Assembly: GCF_003334765.1 (NCBI RefSeq)
Contig: NZ_QOWT01000001.1
Strand: one strand, 5' to 3'
DNA: 64,000 bases
From: Escherichia coli
GTDB taxonomy: Bacteria > Pseudomonadota > Gammaproteobacteria > Enterobacterales > Enterobacteriaceae
The number at the start of each line of letters is the position of its first letter. The stretch's first letter is position 1. A program made the position numbers and the translations under genes. This document shows, piece by piece, positions 16,922-64,000 of the stretch. Under the pieces are notes generated by a model. It was not told the DNA's origin and made no database searches. It worked only from the letters and a program-made list of their open reading frames with translations.

Positions 16922-16940
16922 AAAACGACTCCTCGTAGAT

Positions 16941-18235: not shown

Positions 18236-19003
18236 GTGTTTAATTCTGACAACCTGAGACTCGACGGAAAATGCGCCATCATCACAGGTGCGGGTGCAGG
18301 TATTGGTAAAGAAATCGCCATTACATTCGCGACAGCTGGCGCATCTGTGGTGGTCAGTGATATTAACGCCGACGCAGCTAACCATGTTGTAGACGAAATT
18401 CAACAACTGGGTGGTCAGGCATTTGCCTGCCGTTGTGATATTACTTCCGAACAGGAACTCTCTGCACTGGCAGACTTTGCTATCAGTAAGCTGGGTAAAG
18501 TTGATATTCTGGTTAACAACGCCGGTGGCGGTGGACCTAAACCGTTTGATATGCCAATGGCGGATTTTCGCCGTGCTTATGAACTGAATGTGTTTTCTTT
18601 TTTCCATCTGTCACAACTTGTTGCGCCAGAAATGGAAAAAAATGGCGGTGGCGTTATTCTGACCATCACTTCTATGGCGGCAGAAAATAAAAATATAAAC
18701 ATGACTTCCTATGCATCATCTAAAGCTGCGGCCAGTCATCTGGTCAGAAATATGGCGTTTGACCTGGGTGAAAAAAATATTCGGGTAAATGGCATTGCGC
18801 CGGGGGCAATATTAACCGATGCCCTGAAATCCGTTATTACACCAGAAATTGAACAAAAAATGTTACAGCACACGCCGATCAGACGTCTGGGCCAACCGCA
18901 AGATATTGCTAACGCAGCGCTGTTCCTTTGCTCGCCTGCTGCGAGCTGGGTAAGCGGACAAATTCTCACCGTCTCCGGTGGTGGGGTACAGGAGCTCAAT
19001 TAA
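18236..19003 (+). CDS. hdhA: 7-alpha-hydroxysteroid dehydrogenase (SDR family)
   Basis: 255 aa, GTG start, MFNSDNLRLDGKCAIITGAGAGIGKEIA..., SDR TGxxxGxG and YxxxK motifs. Confidence 0.92.
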   Translation: MFNSDNLRLDGKCAIITGAGAGIGKEIAITFATAGASVVVSDINADAANHVVDEIQQLGGQAFACRCDITSEQELSALADFAISKLGKVDILVNNAGGGGPKPFDMPMADFRRAYELNVFSFFHLSQLVAPEMEKNGGGVILTITSMAAENKNINMTSYASSKAAASHLVRNMAFDLGEKNIRVNGIAPGAILTDALKSVITPEIEQKMLQHTPIRRLGQPQDIANAALFLCSPAASWVSGQILTVSGGGVQELN

Positions 19004-20204: not shown

Positions 20205-21485
20205 ATGTTACGTCCTGTAGAAACCCCAACCCGTGAAATCAAAAAACTCGACGGCCTGTGGGCATTCAGTCTGAATCGCGAAAACTGTGGAATTGATCAG
20301 CGTTGGTGGGAAAGCGCGTTACAAGAAAGCCGGGCAATTGCTGTGCCAGGCAGTTTTAACGATCAGTTCGCCGATGCAGATATTCGTAATTATGCGGGCA
20401 ACGTCTGGTATCAGCGCGAAGTCTTTATACCGAAAGGTTGGGCAGGCCAGCGTATCGTGCTGCGTTTCGATGCGGTCACTCATTACGGCAAAGTGTGGGT
20501 CAATAATCAGGAAGTGATGGAGCATCAGGGCGGCTATACGCCATTTGAAGCCGATGTCACGCCGTATGTTATTGCCGGGAAAAGTGTACGTATCACCGTT
20601 TGTGTGAACAACGAACTGAACTGGCAGACTATCCCGCCGGGAATGGTGATTACCGACGAAAACGGCAAGAAAAAGCAGTCTTACTTCCATGATTTCTTTA
20701 ACTATGCCGGGATCCATCGCAGCGTAATGCTCTACACCACGCCGAACACCTGGGTGGACGATATCACCGTGGTGACGCATGTCGCGCAAGACTGTAACCA
20801 CGCGTCTGTTGACTGGCAGGTGGTGGCCAATGGTGATGTCAGCGTTGAACTGCGTGATGCGGATCAACAGGTGGTTGCAACTGGACAAGGCACTAGCGGG
20901 ACTTTGCAAGTGGTGAATCCGCACCTCTGGCAACCGGGTGAAGGTTATCTCTATGAACTGTGCGTCACAGCCAAAAGCCAGACAGAGTGTGATATCTACC
21001 CGCTTCGCGTCGGCATCCGGTCAGTGGCAGTGAAGGGCGAACAGTTCCTGATTAACCACAAACCGTTCTACTTTACTGGCTTTGGTCGTCATGAAGATGC
21101 GGACTTGCGTGGCAAAGGATTCGATAACGTGCTGATGGTGCACGACCACGCATTAATGGACTGGATTGGGGCCAACTCCTACCGTACCTCGCATTACCCT
21201 TACGCTGAAGAGATGCTCGACTGGGCAGATGAACATGGCATCGTGGTGATTGATGAAACTGCTGCTGTCGGCTTTAACCTCTCTTTAGGCATTGGTTTCG
21301 AAGCGGGCAACAAGCCGAAAGAACTGTACAGCGAAGAGGCAGTCAACGGGGAAACTCAGCAAGCGCACTCTTGCTACCGCGATGACCCAACAACCACAAT
21401 CCCGCGCCCGTCTGGGCGCGGCTCGTGGGATTGCCACTTCATTGACCTTTGTCTGCCTGGCATTTCTGATAGGACCGAGCATTAA
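20205..21485 (+). pseudogene. uidA: beta-glucuronidase, 3'-truncated by an internal deletion; reading frame runs out of frame into uidB sequence
   Basis: Translation matches GH2 beta-glucuronidase from MLRPVETPTREIKKLDGLWAFSL... through ...[14 protein letters not shown] (about residue 388 of 603), then continues as unrelated [10 protein letters not shown]... to a stop at 21485. Confidence 0.85.
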
Positions 21486-22347
21486 GAACTCCAGCCCGGA
21501 AGAGATGGTGTCGGTATACCATTTCTGGACAATTGTGCTGGCGATTGCCGGAATGGTGCTTTACTTCATCTGCTTCAAATCGACGCGTGAGAATGTGGTA
21601 CGTATCGTTGCGCAGCCGTCATTGAATATCAGTCTGCAAACCCTGAAACGGAATCGCCCGCTGTTTATGTTGTGCATCGGTGCGCTGTGTGTGCTGATTT
21701 CGACCTTTGCGGTCAGCGCCTCGTCGTTGTTCTACGTGCGCTATGTGTTAAATGATACCGGGCTGTTCACTGTGCTGGTACTGGTGCAAAACCTGGTTGG
21801 TACTGTGGCATCGGCACCGCTGGTGCCGGGGATGGTCGCGAGGATCGGTAAAAAGAATACCTTCCTGATTGGCGCTTTGCTGGGAACCTGCGGTTATCTG
21901 CTGTTCTTCTGGGTTTCCGTCTGGTCACTGCCGGTGGCGTTGGTTGCGTTGGCCATCGCTTCAATTGGTCAGGGCGTTACCATGACCGTGATGTGGGCGC
22001 TGGAAGCTGATACCGTAGAATACGGTGAATACCTGACCGGCGTGCGAATTGAAGGGCTCACCTATTCACTATTCTCATTTACCCGTAAATGCGGTCAGGC
22101 AATCGGAGGTTCAATTCCTGCCTTTATTTTGGGGTTAAGCGGATATATCGCCAATCAGGTGCAAACGCCGGAAGTTATTATGGGCATCCGCACATCAATT
22201 GCCTTAGTACCTTGCGGATTTATGCTACTGGCATTCGTTATTATCTGGTTTTATCCGCTCACGGATAAAAAATTCAAAGAAATCGTGGTTGAAATTGATA
22301 ATCGTAAAAAAGTGCAGCAGCAATTAATCAGCGATATCACTAATTAA
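21369..22347 (+). pseudogene. uidB: glucuronide permease (GPH/MFS family), 5'-truncated remnant lacking its own start
   Basis: From the junction the frame encodes ...[35 protein letters not shown]... to ...[13 protein letters not shown], about 325 C-terminal residues of a roughly 457-aa transporter; the ORF-track N-terminus ([10 protein letters not shown]...) comes from uidA DNA in another frame. Confidence 0.85.
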
Positions 22348-22385: not shown

Positions 22386-23651
22386 ATGAGAAAAATAGTG
22401 GCCATGGCCGTTATTTGCCTGACGGCTGCCTCTGGCCTTACCTCTGCTTATGCGGCGCAACTGGCTGACGATGAAGCGGGACTACGCATCAGACTGAAAA
22501 ACGAATTGCGCAGGGCGGATAAGCCCAGTGCTGGCGCGGGAAGAGATATTTACGCATGGGTACAGGGAGGATTGCTCGATTTCAATAGTGGTTATTATTC
22601 CAATATTATTGGCGTTGAAGGCGGGGCGTATTATGTTTATAAATTAGGTGCTCGTGCTGATATGAGTACCCGGTGGTATCTTGATGGTGATAAAAGTTTT
22701 GGCTTTGCCCTGGGGGCAGTAAAAATAAAACCCAGTGAAAATAGCCTGCTTAAATTAGGTCGCTTCGGGACGGATTATAGTTATGGTAGCTTACCTTATC
22801 GTATTCCGTTAATGGCTGGCAGTTCGCAACGTACATTACCGACAGTTTCTGAAGGAGCATTAGGTTATTGGGCTTTAACACCAAATATTGATCTGTGGGG
22901 AATGTGGCGTTCACGAGTATTTTTATGGACTGATTCAACAACCGGTATTCGTGATGAAGGGGTGTATAACAGCCAGACGGGAAAATACGATAAACATCGC
23001 GCACGTTCTTTTTTAGCCGCCAGTTGGCATGATGATACCAGTCGCTATTCTCTGGGGGCATCGGTACAGAAAGATGTTTCCAATCAGATACAAAGTATTC
23101 TCGAGAAAAGCATACCGCTCGACCCGAATTATACGTTGAAAGGGGAGTTGCTCGGCTTTTACGCGCAGCTCGAAGGTTTAAGTCGTAATACCAGCCAGCC
23201 CAATGAAACGGCGTTGGTTAGTGGACAATTGACCTGGAATGCGCCGTGGGGAAGTGTATTTGGCAGTGGTGGTTATTTGCGCCATGCAATGAATGGTGCC
23301 GTGGTGGATACCGACATTGGCTATCCCTTTTCATTAAGTCTTGATCGTAACCGTGAAGGAATGCAGTCCTGGCAATTGGGCGTCAACTATCGTTTAACGC
23401 CGCAATTTACGCTGACATTTGCACCGATTGTGACTCGCGGCTATGAATCCAGTAAACGAGATGTGCGGATTGAAGGCACGGGTATCTTAGGTGGTATGAA
23501 CTATCGGGTCAGCGAAGGGCCGTTACAAGGGATGAATTTCTTTCTTGCTGCCGATAAAGGGCGGGAAAAGCGCGATGGCAGTACGCTGGGCGATCGCCTG
23601 AATTACTGGGATGTGAAAATGAGTATTCAGTATGACTTTATGCTGAAGTAA
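22386..23651 (+). CDS. uidC: outer-membrane glucuronide porin-like protein UidC
   Basis: 421 aa, signal peptide MRKIVAMAVICLTAASGLTSAYAAQ, beta-barrel-like composition, C-terminal ...QYDFMLK. Confidence 0.9.
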   Translation: MRKIVAMAVICLTAASGLTSAYAAQLADDEAGLRIRLKNELRRADKPSAGAGRDIYAWVQGGLLDFNSGYYSNIIGVEGGAYYVYKLGARADMSTRWYLDGDKSFGFALGAVKIKPSENSLLKLGRFGTDYSYGSLPYRIPLMAGSSQRTLPTVSEGALGYWALTPNIDLWGMWRSRVFLWTDSTTGIRDEGVYNSQTGKYDKHRARSFLAASWHDDTSRYSLGASVQKDVSNQIQSILEKSIPLDPNYTLKGELLGFYAQLEGLSRNTSQPNETALVSGQLTWNAPWGSVFGSGGYLRHAMNGAVVDTDIGYPFSLSLDRNREGMQSWQLGVNYRLTPQFTLTFAPIVTRGYESSKRDVRIEGTGILGGMNYRVSEGPLQGMNFFLAADKGREKRDGSTLGDRLNYWDVKMSIQYDFMLK

Positions 23652-23876: not shown

Positions 23877-25385
23877 TTACTGCTGCGGAATTGCCGGTAC
23901 AGCCGGAACGTTAAGAGCTGGCATCGCAAACATGCCAACAAAATCTTCTAACGACATTTTCTGCCCATTTAACGTTATCTGACCGTTAGCATATTGCAGG
24001 CTGGTGGTGATGGTATTGTCCTGCAAGGTGGTCAGACGGAACATCTGCCCCATTGCTGATGCACCTTCAACTTGCTGTTTCGCCAGTTTTTTCGCTTGAT
24101 CTTCCTGATAACCTTCCAGCTTCGCTACCTGAGTCATAAACTCAGTTGCCATATCCACCGGAATGGTCAGTTTCGCATCCAGAGATTTAACCGAACGATC
24201 TACTTCCTGCGCCAGCGTTTGCGGCGCTTCTTTAGTCGTTGCCGGATCTTTCAGGAACAGCGACAGATTCAGGGCACTTTCACCCTGACTGTTTTTCCAG
24301 CTTAGCGGCGCGATAGTAATCACCGGATCGCCTTTCAGCATCAGCGGCAGGGCGCTAAAGAAGGCTTCCGTCACTTTCTCCTGATAAAGTTCGGGGTTGT
24401 TGGCAATTTCTGGCTGTGCCAGCAGCGCCTGAGTTTGCGCGTTATATTGCTGGCTAAACTGATGCCAGGCTTCACCATCAATCTGGCCGACTTTTAAAGT
24501 CAGCTTGCCGCTGCCCAGATCCTGATTCTGTACCTTCAGGCTGTTTAGCGAGTAATCCAGTTGGCTATTGATCGTTTTACCGTCATTGACCAGATCCGAT
24601 TTACAGCTGATCTCCATGCCTTCCAGCAGTGCCAGTTCTTTGCCTTCCACTGAAATGGTCATTTTTTCCAGTGACAGTTTTTGATTTCCTACACGCTCAC
24701 CAAAACTTGCCAGCGTGCTGGAACCGTCGGTTTTCAGATTATTAAAGGTCAACTGCACTTTCTGGTTGTATTCGTTAACTGCGTCTATCCGACCACTTTG
24801 CGCCTCCCCGGAAAGGGAGATGGCTTTGCCGTCTCTGTCAGCATTTAACTGGAACTCGCCGCCGCTAAAGGCGACTTTTTCATCCTTTTGCTCGTAATTC
24901 AGTGGCTTGAGCGAAATATCGGAACTGGAATCACCGCTGTAACCAATGCGCGAGTTAATCTCAAAAGGCGTTTCACCTTTTGCCATATCAAACAGTGGTT
25001 TGCTTACTTCGTTATTAACCAGCGTGGTTTGAATTGATGCCATCGACGGGATCAGGTTCAGTTTTTTAAGCTGGGCAAGCGGGAAGGGACCATGATCAAC
25101 CGATTCGTTGAAGATGACGCTCTGACCGCTTTTAATCCACGGATTTTCTTTCCCGGCAATGGGTTTCACCAACAGTTGCAACTGGCTGCTGAATACGCCG
25201 CGATGATAGTTTTGATAACTCACTTCCAGGTTGGATTCAGGAGCTGTCAGTTTGAGTTGCGCGTTCGCCTGCGCGACCATGTCTTCGAGATGGGTTTCAA
25301 TCTTCTTGCCTGTATACCATGCGCCGCCTGTCCAGACTACGCCTAGCGCAACAATGACGCCTACCGCTACCAGCGATTTATTCAT
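23877..25385 (-). CDS. ydgA: DUF945-family periplasmic/inner-membrane-anchored protein YdgA
   Basis: 502 aa, N-terminal signal/anchor MNKSLVAVGVIVALGVVWTGGAWYTGKK, no catalytic motifs recognised. Confidence 0.85.
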   Translation of the reverse strand: MNKSLVAVGVIVALGVVWTGGAWYTGKKIETHLEDMVAQANAQLKLTAPESNLEVSYQNYHRGVFSSQLQLLVKPIAGKENPWIKSGQSVIFNESVDHGPFPLAQLKKLNLIPSMASIQTTLVNNEVSKPLFDMAKGETPFEINSRIGYSGDSSSDISLKPLNYEQKDEKVAFSGGEFQLNADRDGKAISLSGEAQSGRIDAVNEYNQKVQLTFNNLKTDGSSTLASFGERVGNQKLSLEKMTISVEGKELALLEGMEISCKSDLVNDGKTINSQLDYSLNSLKVQNQDLGSGKLTLKVGQIDGEAWHQFSQQYNAQTQALLAQPEIANNPELYQEKVTEAFFSALPLMLKGDPVITIAPLSWKNSQGESALNLSLFLKDPATTKEAPQTLAQEVDRSVKSLDAKLTIPVDMATEFMTQVAKLEGYQEDQAKKLAKQQVEGASAMGQMFRLTTLQDNTITTSLQYANGQITLNGQKMSLEDFVGMFAMPALNVPAVPAIPQQ

Positions 25386-62528: not shown

Positions 62529-63809
62529 TTAATTTTTCATTGCTTCGTTATGGGGCATGGTTGGGGCAAACTCGCTTAACTGTGTATTTAACAAAGCTAC
62601 CTGTGCATTATTGTTTTCAGACATCCATTTTCCGTATACCTGAAATACCATTTGCGCATCTGCATGGCCCATCTGGTTTGCTATAAATGCCGGGTTAGCA
62701 CCAGCTGTCAGCGACCAGCAGGCATAAGTATGTCTCGACTGATATGATTTTCGATGGCGGAGTCCGGCACGTTTTATCGCTGCGTCCCACATCTGCCTTA
62801 TTGAGTCAACGGTAAAATGGTCACCATAATTTTTTACTCTCGCTGACACTTCAGGTTGAAAAACAAAGGTGCATTTTTGTTTTTCTGTTCTGCCATACTC
62901 TCTGAGGTGAACATCAATGATATGCTCTTTGCTCAGTCTCGTTAATGTCATCTGACTCCGGAGAGCGTCGATTGCTGGCTTAATAAGATGAATGACCCGA
63001 TTGGTTCCCGCCTGTGTTTTTGGTACCGTGAAACGGTCTTTTGCTAAATTTCTCCTGATCATCATTGTTCCATTTTTCAGATCTATGTCCTCCCATCCAA
63101 GTGCACACAGCTCACCAGGGCGAACTCCAGTATAAACAGAAACACACCATAAATTTTTTGCTTGCTGATTTCTGCACGCATCGATAAGACGGATAAATTC
63201 TTCCCGCGAAAGAGGATCCGGAATGGTTCTTGATTCCTTTAATGGCGAGATCCCCTTAAACGGATTATCTGCCAGGTAACCGTTATCAACACCAAACTGG
63301 AACACGGCGTTAAGATTTGTCATGTAATTATTTACAGTTACAGCCGATCTCCCTGGTTGTGTAACAATATAGTTACTTTTGGGGATCTGGTATCCAGTCA
63401 GTAACTCTTTACGAACCTCCAGTAATTTTTCTTTATTAATCGATGAGGCAAGATTTTTTTCACCGATTATGCTCAGGATATTTTTGATGACGGCACGGTA
63501 TGTGTTGAGTGATGTTTTGGCGACTTCAGTTTCTTTCAGTGCCAGAAATTTTTCAGCCAGTTCTTTTATGGTTAAATCTTGTCGGGCCTCACCAAATTTT
63601 TCCAGATTGCGTGAGGAGGGAAACTGTTTTGCATAGTCGAAAACACCAGTTTTTATTGCGTAACAAACAGAGGAGCGTAGTTCACCTGCAACGCGCCTGT
63701 TTTTTGCTGTGTCAGGAACCCCCAGATTTTCCCTGACTCTTACGTCTTTATAAACAAACCAGATACGTAATTTCCCTCCATGGTTTTCCACGCCTGTCGG
63801 ATATTTCAT
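62529..63809 (-). CDS. intQ: phage tyrosine integrase (site-specific recombinase)
   Basis: ORF track gives 431 aa; probable start MKYPTGVENHGGKLRIWF... (426 aa); C-terminal catalytic region with R-H-T-Y-A box, GH and QVYGKW tyrosine; symbol assigned by position. Confidence 0.8.
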   Translation of the reverse strand: MKYPTGVENHGGKLRIWFVYKDVRVRENLGVPDTAKNRRVAGELRSSVCYAIKTGVFDYAKQFPSSRNLEKFGEARQDLTIKELAEKFLALKETEVAKTSLNTYRAVIKNILSIIGEKNLASSINKEKLLEVRKELLTGYQIPKSNYIVTQPGRSAVTVNNYMTNLNAVFQFGVDNGYLADNPFKGISPLKESRTIPDPLSREEFIRLIDACRNQQAKNLWCVSVYTGVRPGELCALGWEDIDLKNGTMMIRRNLAKDRFTVPKTQAGTNRVIHLIKPAIDALRSQMTLTRLSKEHIIDVHLREYGRTEKQKCTFVFQPEVSARVKNYGDHFTVDSIRQMWDAAIKRAGLRHRKSYQSRHTYACWSLTAGANPAFIANQMGHADAQMVFQVYGKWMSENNNAQVALLNTQLSEFAPTMPHNEAMKN

Positions 63810-63843
63810 TTCAACTTCTCTCATTAGTTAGTGTGGCTTTTAG

Positions 63844-64000
63844 TCAAGTAAGATGACGTCTTGGTCTCGCTGATGCCTGGCGCTCAATCCAGCGATCAAT
63901 TTCTTCCAGGTTGTAAAAGCATGGACTGTTATCCCATGGCATACCGTCATGAGCGACATGCTTATATTCCCTTCCTTCCATAAACGATTTTTCCCGGGCC
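63844..64000 (-). CDS. excisionase-like protein (lambda Xis family), partial; N-terminus beyond the window end
   Basis: Minus-strand translation ...AREKSFMEGREYKHVAHDGMPWDNSPCFYNLEEIDRWIERQASARPRRHLT*; the EGREY segment resembles the DGREY region of lambda Xis; sits immediately upstream of int on the same strand. Confidence 0.5.
   Translation of the reverse strand, partial: AREKSFMEGREYKHVAHDGMPWDNSPCFYNLEEIDRWIERQASARPRRHLT

Follow-up and report, generated by a model that had tools for sequence, protein, structure and literature searches.

In a survey of 2,302 RefSeq genomes of Escherichia coli, uidA, the gene for β-glucuronidase (GUS), was inactivated at a notably high rate (PMC10282060). 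Typical O157:H7 strains carry a frameshift in this gene (PMC6256406), and bacterial GUS enzymes are defined by conserved residues that correspond to E413, E504, N566, and K568 of the E. coli enzyme (PMC8748916). E. coli ERP001 (NZ_CP063214.1), a red panda isolate that we came across in the complete-genome set, has lost about 667 bp across uidA and uidB (reference locus 3319‒3978) in an independent deletion; its junction, at about 3592‒3598 of its own locus, has a 7-nt overlap and is of the microhomology type, and its uidB is annotated as a pseudogene in RefSeq. Engineered uidA(ΔMluI)::pir alleles occur in K-12 cloning hosts, with MluI sites as their boundaries and with an insert.

The locus described here lies in a 64-kb window of an E. 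coli genome (the whole stretch of 64,000 nucleotides that was analysed), in which uidA and uidB are joined by a 1,039-bp deletion. As in O157:H7, the genotype is GUS-negative, most of the uidA DNA is kept, so that the gene is still PCR positive, and the allele marks a clonal lineage (PMC6256406, PMC10282060). In contrast to the small frameshift of O157:H7, the deletion also takes the 5′ third of uidB, the uidA frame stays open and native for 388 codons, and the background is K-12-like. An earlier note on this DNA had set the lesion apart from the O157:H7 frameshift type, rightly so: in that type, a small insertion shifts the frame within the 5′ half of a uidA that otherwise has its full length, whereas here colinearity with intact uidA, in frame, extends over the first 1,165 nt. 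ERP001 shares with the window a deletion over the uidA stop and the uidB start, a chimeric uidA ORF, an N-terminally truncated uidB, and intact uidR and uidC genes, but its breakpoints differ and its background is more divergent (~97% identity). The uidA(ΔMluI)::pir alleles also combine an internal uidA lesion with a K-12-like chromosome; unlike them, the window keeps the uidA MluI site at 20800, has its junction off restriction sites, and contains no foreign DNA.

Window positions 18500‒24500 were aligned at single-base resolution to two intact loci, that of K-12 MG1655 and that of the blood isolate AF58. The AF58 locus is base-identical outside the deletion: the window follows it as far as 21369 and rejoins it at 21370, and the 1,039 bp absent in between, relative to both intact loci, are the interval 2871‒3909 of the reference locus. 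The earlier note had described an internal deletion of about 1 kb, with a breakpoint near 21369, that fuses a truncated uidA to a 5′-truncated uidB. The alignment to K-12 and AF58 upholds this description and places the junction exactly between 21369 and 21370, with GCGCACT on its left and CTTGCTACC on its right, and with zero bases of microhomology. The deleted DNA comprises uidA nt 1166‒1812 and uidB nt 1‒396, the two genes overlapping by 4 nt. The final uidA base kept, nt 1165, is base 1 of codon 389, and the first uidB base kept, nt 397, is base 1 of codon 133. Neither a 603-aa UidA nor a 457-aa UidB is encoded here; both are truncated in the alignment. The lesion is real, and it is isolated and clean, since apart from it the 64-kb window is colinear with E. 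coli strain H3 (NZ_CP028732.1), with seven SNPs and no other indel.

The uidA remnant (20205‒21369, plus strand) consists of nt 1‒1165 and encodes residues 1‒388, as seen from the ORF, the alignment, and phmmer. It forms the main part of a chimeric ORF of 426 aa (20205‒21485), in which these residues are followed by 38 out-of-frame codons. The tail (21370‒21485, plus strand) is uidB DNA translated in the wrong frame: codon 389 is TCT with its first base at 21369, 37 further unrelated codons follow, and a TAA stop at 21483‒21485 ends the frame. The remnant comprises the N-terminal sugar-binding domain, the Ig-like domain, and the first part of the TIM barrel, and Pfam assigns Glyco_hydro_2_N, Glyco_hydro_2, and Glyco_hydro_2_C to the 426-aa product. 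In a phmmer search against PDB chains, only product residues 1‒388/389 align to E. coli β-glucuronidase (3K46 and others); residues 1‒388 are essentially identical to the E. coli GUS chains (E about 1e-275), and the chimeric tail beyond residue 389 has no match among the PDB chains. Compared with K-12, the remnant carries D24N (SNP at 20274), which is common to AF58.

The product keeps the two N-terminal domains (sugar-binding and Ig-like), which are homologous to those of E. coli GUS, but not the catalytic apparatus. Residues 413 and 504 of the 603-aa reference UidA are both Glu, and Glu413 (acid/base) and Glu504 (nucleophile) both lie in the deleted segment, which leaves the TIM barrel incomplete. 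The N566/K568 recognition motif is gone with the C-terminal 215 residues. These results agree with what had been read from the DNA beforehand, namely colinearity with UidA to about residue 388 (388 native residues in the alignment), 38 unrelated codons at the end of the frame (exactly 38 in the translation), and a 603-aa enzyme whose catalytic glutamates, near 413 and 504, belong to the missing part (as in the reference protein). Since E413, E504, N566, and K568 are missing and the TIM barrel is cut mid-way, it can safely be predicted that no active β-glucuronidase is made from this locus and that the genotype is GUS-null. E. coli is not known to have a second GUS gene.

The uidB remnant (21370‒22347, plus strand) retains codons 133‒457 and the stop; in the alignment, the uidB frame is picked up precisely with codon 133 (21370), and the normal stop is kept at 22347. 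UidB, 457 aa long in the reference, loses residues 1‒132, and a simple hydropathy scan finds at least three (three to four) hydrophobic segments in the lost part. As a GPH/MFS_2 transporter it would therefore be defective, as codons 1‒132 are gone and with them the full length of ~457 aa, the N-terminal helix bundle, and its own start. Two in-frame start candidates, the ATG codons at 21382 and 21505, have no convincing Shine-Dalgarno sequence at proper spacing, and no promoter-like site was found to be created at the junction. We thus rejected both a new promoter and a usable translation start for the uidB remnant. Gene callers give C-terminal MFS_2 fragments of 280 aa or 351 aa for it. That UidB, of about 457 aa, would lack its start codon, ribosome-binding site, roughly 130 residues, and first few transmembrane helices had been anticipated, and the 132 deleted residues, the lack of a plausible ribosome-binding site, and the three to four lost hydrophobic segments fit this expectation. 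Since the remnant has neither a translation start nor the N-terminal helices, glucuronide uptake would be lost, and a glucuronide-transport-null genotype is likewise a safe prediction.

The remainder of the operon is intact. uidR (19224‒19814, plus strand), the gene for the uid operon repressor, encodes 196 aa, is annotated in the reference as UidR WP_000969092.1, and shows no difference from H3 or K-12. The uidR-uidA intergenic region (19815‒20204, plus strand), where the uidA promoter and operators are presumably located, is unchanged and identical to H3 and K-12. uidC (22386‒23651, plus strand), which encodes the outer-membrane glucuronide porin of 421 aa, has an intact CDS as judged from the ORF and the comparison; across the gene, the only difference from H3 is at 22575, where the window has the K-12/AF58 base. 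The claim that uidR, the uidA promoter region, and uidC are intact holds, with no differences from K-12. uidC now lies behind ~860 nt of untranslated RNA, and its expression would plausibly be reduced through Rho-dependent polarity.

The window contains, in order, tyrS/pdxY, the rsx operon, malXY/malI, hdhA, uidR-uidA-uidB-uidC, ydgA, manA, fumA/fumC, tus, pntAB, rspAB, and a prophage integrase, all in the opposite orientation to the K-12 map. Between the window and K-12 MG1655, we counted 16 SNPs over 63.7 kb and none in fumC, which is identical; the background is a close relative of K-12, yet not K-12. The K-12 alignment stops at 63688; from 63688 to 64000 the window, like H3, runs into an integrase/excisionase region by rspB; at this place, the integrase of K-12 is truncated and split by IS2. 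Six SNPs separate the window from both H3 and K-12 (1813, 16940, 24605, 33243, 40657, and 61272). Four of them are non-synonymous (ydgA G261C, ydgC V13I, tqsA A223V, and rspA V393F), one is synonymous in gstA, and one is located 19 nt upstream of the malX start. Diverged 96-bp tandem repeats in rsxC (7181‒7701) give off-diagonal BLAST matches between register-shifted copies with 87‒91% identity; H3 has them as well, so that they are a normal feature of the gene. Scans of window positions 1‒64000 found no tRNA genes and no Rfam families at gathering score.

The sequence around the junction gives few clues to how the deletion formed. Each breakpoint has a CACTT pentamer, with the two copies shifted by 2 nt against each other, and the junction is spanned by a 6-bp inverted repeat (AGCAAG-N6-CTTGCT). 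When 20,000 random deletions were simulated in the same locus, a comparable CACTT-like pair was obtained in 6.9%, an inverted repeat in 3.0%, and zero microhomology in 57% of them. Neither the CACTT pair nor the inverted repeat is thus informative as a mechanistic signature. Microhomology-mediated (replication-slippage) deletion was rejected, as the junction has no direct repeat with one copy retained. An IS-mediated adjacent deletion was also rejected, as uidA is joined directly to uidB with no extra sequence relative to H3. No restriction-site boundary or scar was found at either breakpoint. By exclusion, RecA-independent illegitimate recombination or break rejoining may be suggested, if only weakly.

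An exact-sequence look-up found the exact 426-aa chimeric protein on 53 contigs. The NCBI carriers are Escherichia sp. 4_1_40B (GCA_000158415.2, protein EIG70478.1), GCA_965137835.1, GCA_976942305.1, and GCA_039058215.1; further carriers are the ENA assembly ERZ1743085, two infant-gut metagenome scaffolds (ROBE23-1... and VATA19-1...), and several Logan runs. The junction is seen in at least 12 separate samples or assemblies, from isolates as well as gut metagenomes, with slightly different flanking haplotypes. In the aligned carrier loci the junction is identical, and these loci differ from the window by 0‒3 SNPs over the 5‒21 kb compared and form several distinct haplotypes; several carriers are 100% identical over 7.3 kb. 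Every carrier locus that covers position 16940 has a T there, a base found in neither H3 nor K-12. ERZ1743085 does not have the ydgA change at 24605, which hence arose after the deletion.

The two metagenome scaffolds show peculiarities of their own. In the VATA19 scaffold (window-equivalent 23652‒23876), two SNPs follow right after the uidC stop, and the ~190-bp spacer between the uidC terminator and ydgA is missing, which could reflect a repeat presence/absence polymorphism, a recombination tract, or a metagenome chimera. The ROBE23 scaffold has a 1-nt insertion in hdhA at window-equivalent 18827, by which the called product is cut to 205 aa; the frameshift may be genuine or an error of metagenome assembly.

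Among the complete RefSeq genomes of E. coli the allele was not found. A 301-nt query centred on the junction was searched against 5,426 such genomes, none of which (0/5,426) matches 80% or more of the query at any one place, while both halves of the query are present in 5,331 of the 5,426 and are never joined. An exact-match scan of JGI metagenome contigs with the 40-nt junction gave 0 matches. Since both searches came back empty, the clone appears to be rare.

The contigs of two carriers end within the uid region, and their tails are an IS5 terminus. In GCA_039058215.1 the break falls at window-equivalent 22207, within the uidB remnant, and in SRR30656959 at 22864, within uidC; the 55-nt tail is a multicopy sequence, found in other genomes beside a transposase gene of the IS5 family. 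Both carriers seem to have acquired secondary IS5 insertions, with the operon continuing to decay, as would be expected of an operon that has escaped selection.

The shared junction, the few SNPs, the shared T at 16940, and the IS5 diversification together point to one old event that was inherited in a diversifying clone. The earlier note had left a natural, an engineered, and an assembly-derived origin side by side; with the same junction in many separate samples, the first is retained and the other two are given up, and the carrier comparison shows that the deletion is natural. We consider it very probable that a spontaneous 1,039-bp uidA/uidB deletion of single origin has been inherited in a human-gut clone, with loss of GUS and glucuronide uptake. 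In the course of events that we propose, a spontaneous chromosomal deletion across the uidA/uidB boundary would have arisen once, in a phylogroup-A-like lineage near K-12 in this region, and would have been passed on vertically in a clone circulating in human guts. The operon would have decayed afterwards, as sublineages gained IS5 in the uidB remnant and in uidC.

The loss might have been positively selected rather than a matter of neutral decay, if it benefited a gut clone in parallel to O157:H7 and Shigella. The allele persists through measurable diversification, and uidA is inactivated unusually often in the species (PMC10282060), both of which would fit selection. On the other hand, the clone is rare, and the later IS5 insertions are equally expected under relaxed selection following a neutral loss, and we regard positive selection as unlikely. 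The fuller proposal, that the loss of GUS and glucuronide uptake is adaptive in a gut commensal clone and constitutes a third independent selected loss beside O157:H7 and Shigella, seems at least as doubtful. If it were adaptive, selection against the entire pathway, not drift, would explain why the clone persists across hosts and why IS5 keeps eroding uidB and uidC.

Single origin with subsequent inheritance also has to be weighed against recurrence, in which an identical deletion would have occurred repeatedly at a hotspot in unrelated carriers. The different uidA-uidB deletion of ERP001 does indicate that the boundary region can be lost repeatedly. However, no sequence feature that could direct identical breakpoints is present, microhomology being absent, and the carriers that cover 16940 share the lineage-specific SNP and are near-identical over the 5‒21 kb compared; the allele is also missing from the 5,426 complete genomes, which come from all lineages. 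Recurrence is thus very improbable.

Deliberate construction in a laboratory strain, by allelic exchange or recombineering for a GUS-negative host, appears just as implausible. A blunt junction without microhomology is what a design could give, and the background is very near K-12. Against this, the junction has no scar, cassette, or restriction-defined end, neither of the MluI sites (20800 and 21583) coincides with a breakpoint, and removing half of uidA together with a third of uidB, out of frame, would be no sensible design. The 16 SNPs in 63.7 kb and the integrase/excisionase region in place of the IS2-interrupted truncated integrase also argue against a K-12 derivative, and the carriers include infant-gut metagenomes and have diversified by SNPs and IS5. 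An assembly artefact, in which a collapse or mis-join would conceal an intact uidA-uidB in the real genome, would account for the lack of the junction in complete RefSeq genomes but is hardly credible, given that no repeat at the breakpoints could cause a collapse and that the identical junction emerged from different pipelines (NCBI isolates, an ENA SPAdes-style assembly, metagenome scaffolds, and Logan unitigs).

With a naturally inherited single deletion as the preferred reading, the consequences are mainly diagnostic. Strains of the clone should read negative in MUG, X-gluc, TBX, and Colilert-type glucuronidase tests. The same strains would stay uidA-PCR positive, and the Pasteur MLST uidA fragment could still be typed, because the primer sites lie in the retained 5′ 1,165 nt; the sites of the common uidA PCR (Bej) and of the Pasteur MLST uidA primers are intact in the window. 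The junction would also serve as a simple clone-specific marker for tracking the lineage in gut metagenomes.

The allele has been public in databases for years, annotated merely as β-glucuronidase, and our literature search on it and on strain 4_1_40B found only general statements on uidA inactivation and the O157:H7 case. It is of a familiar kind and apparently undescribed, and its value is practical rather than conceptual. For the species, it would be one more case of E. coli lineages losing uidA, in which the decay of the operon seems to have been stepwise, the deletion coming first and IS5 later.
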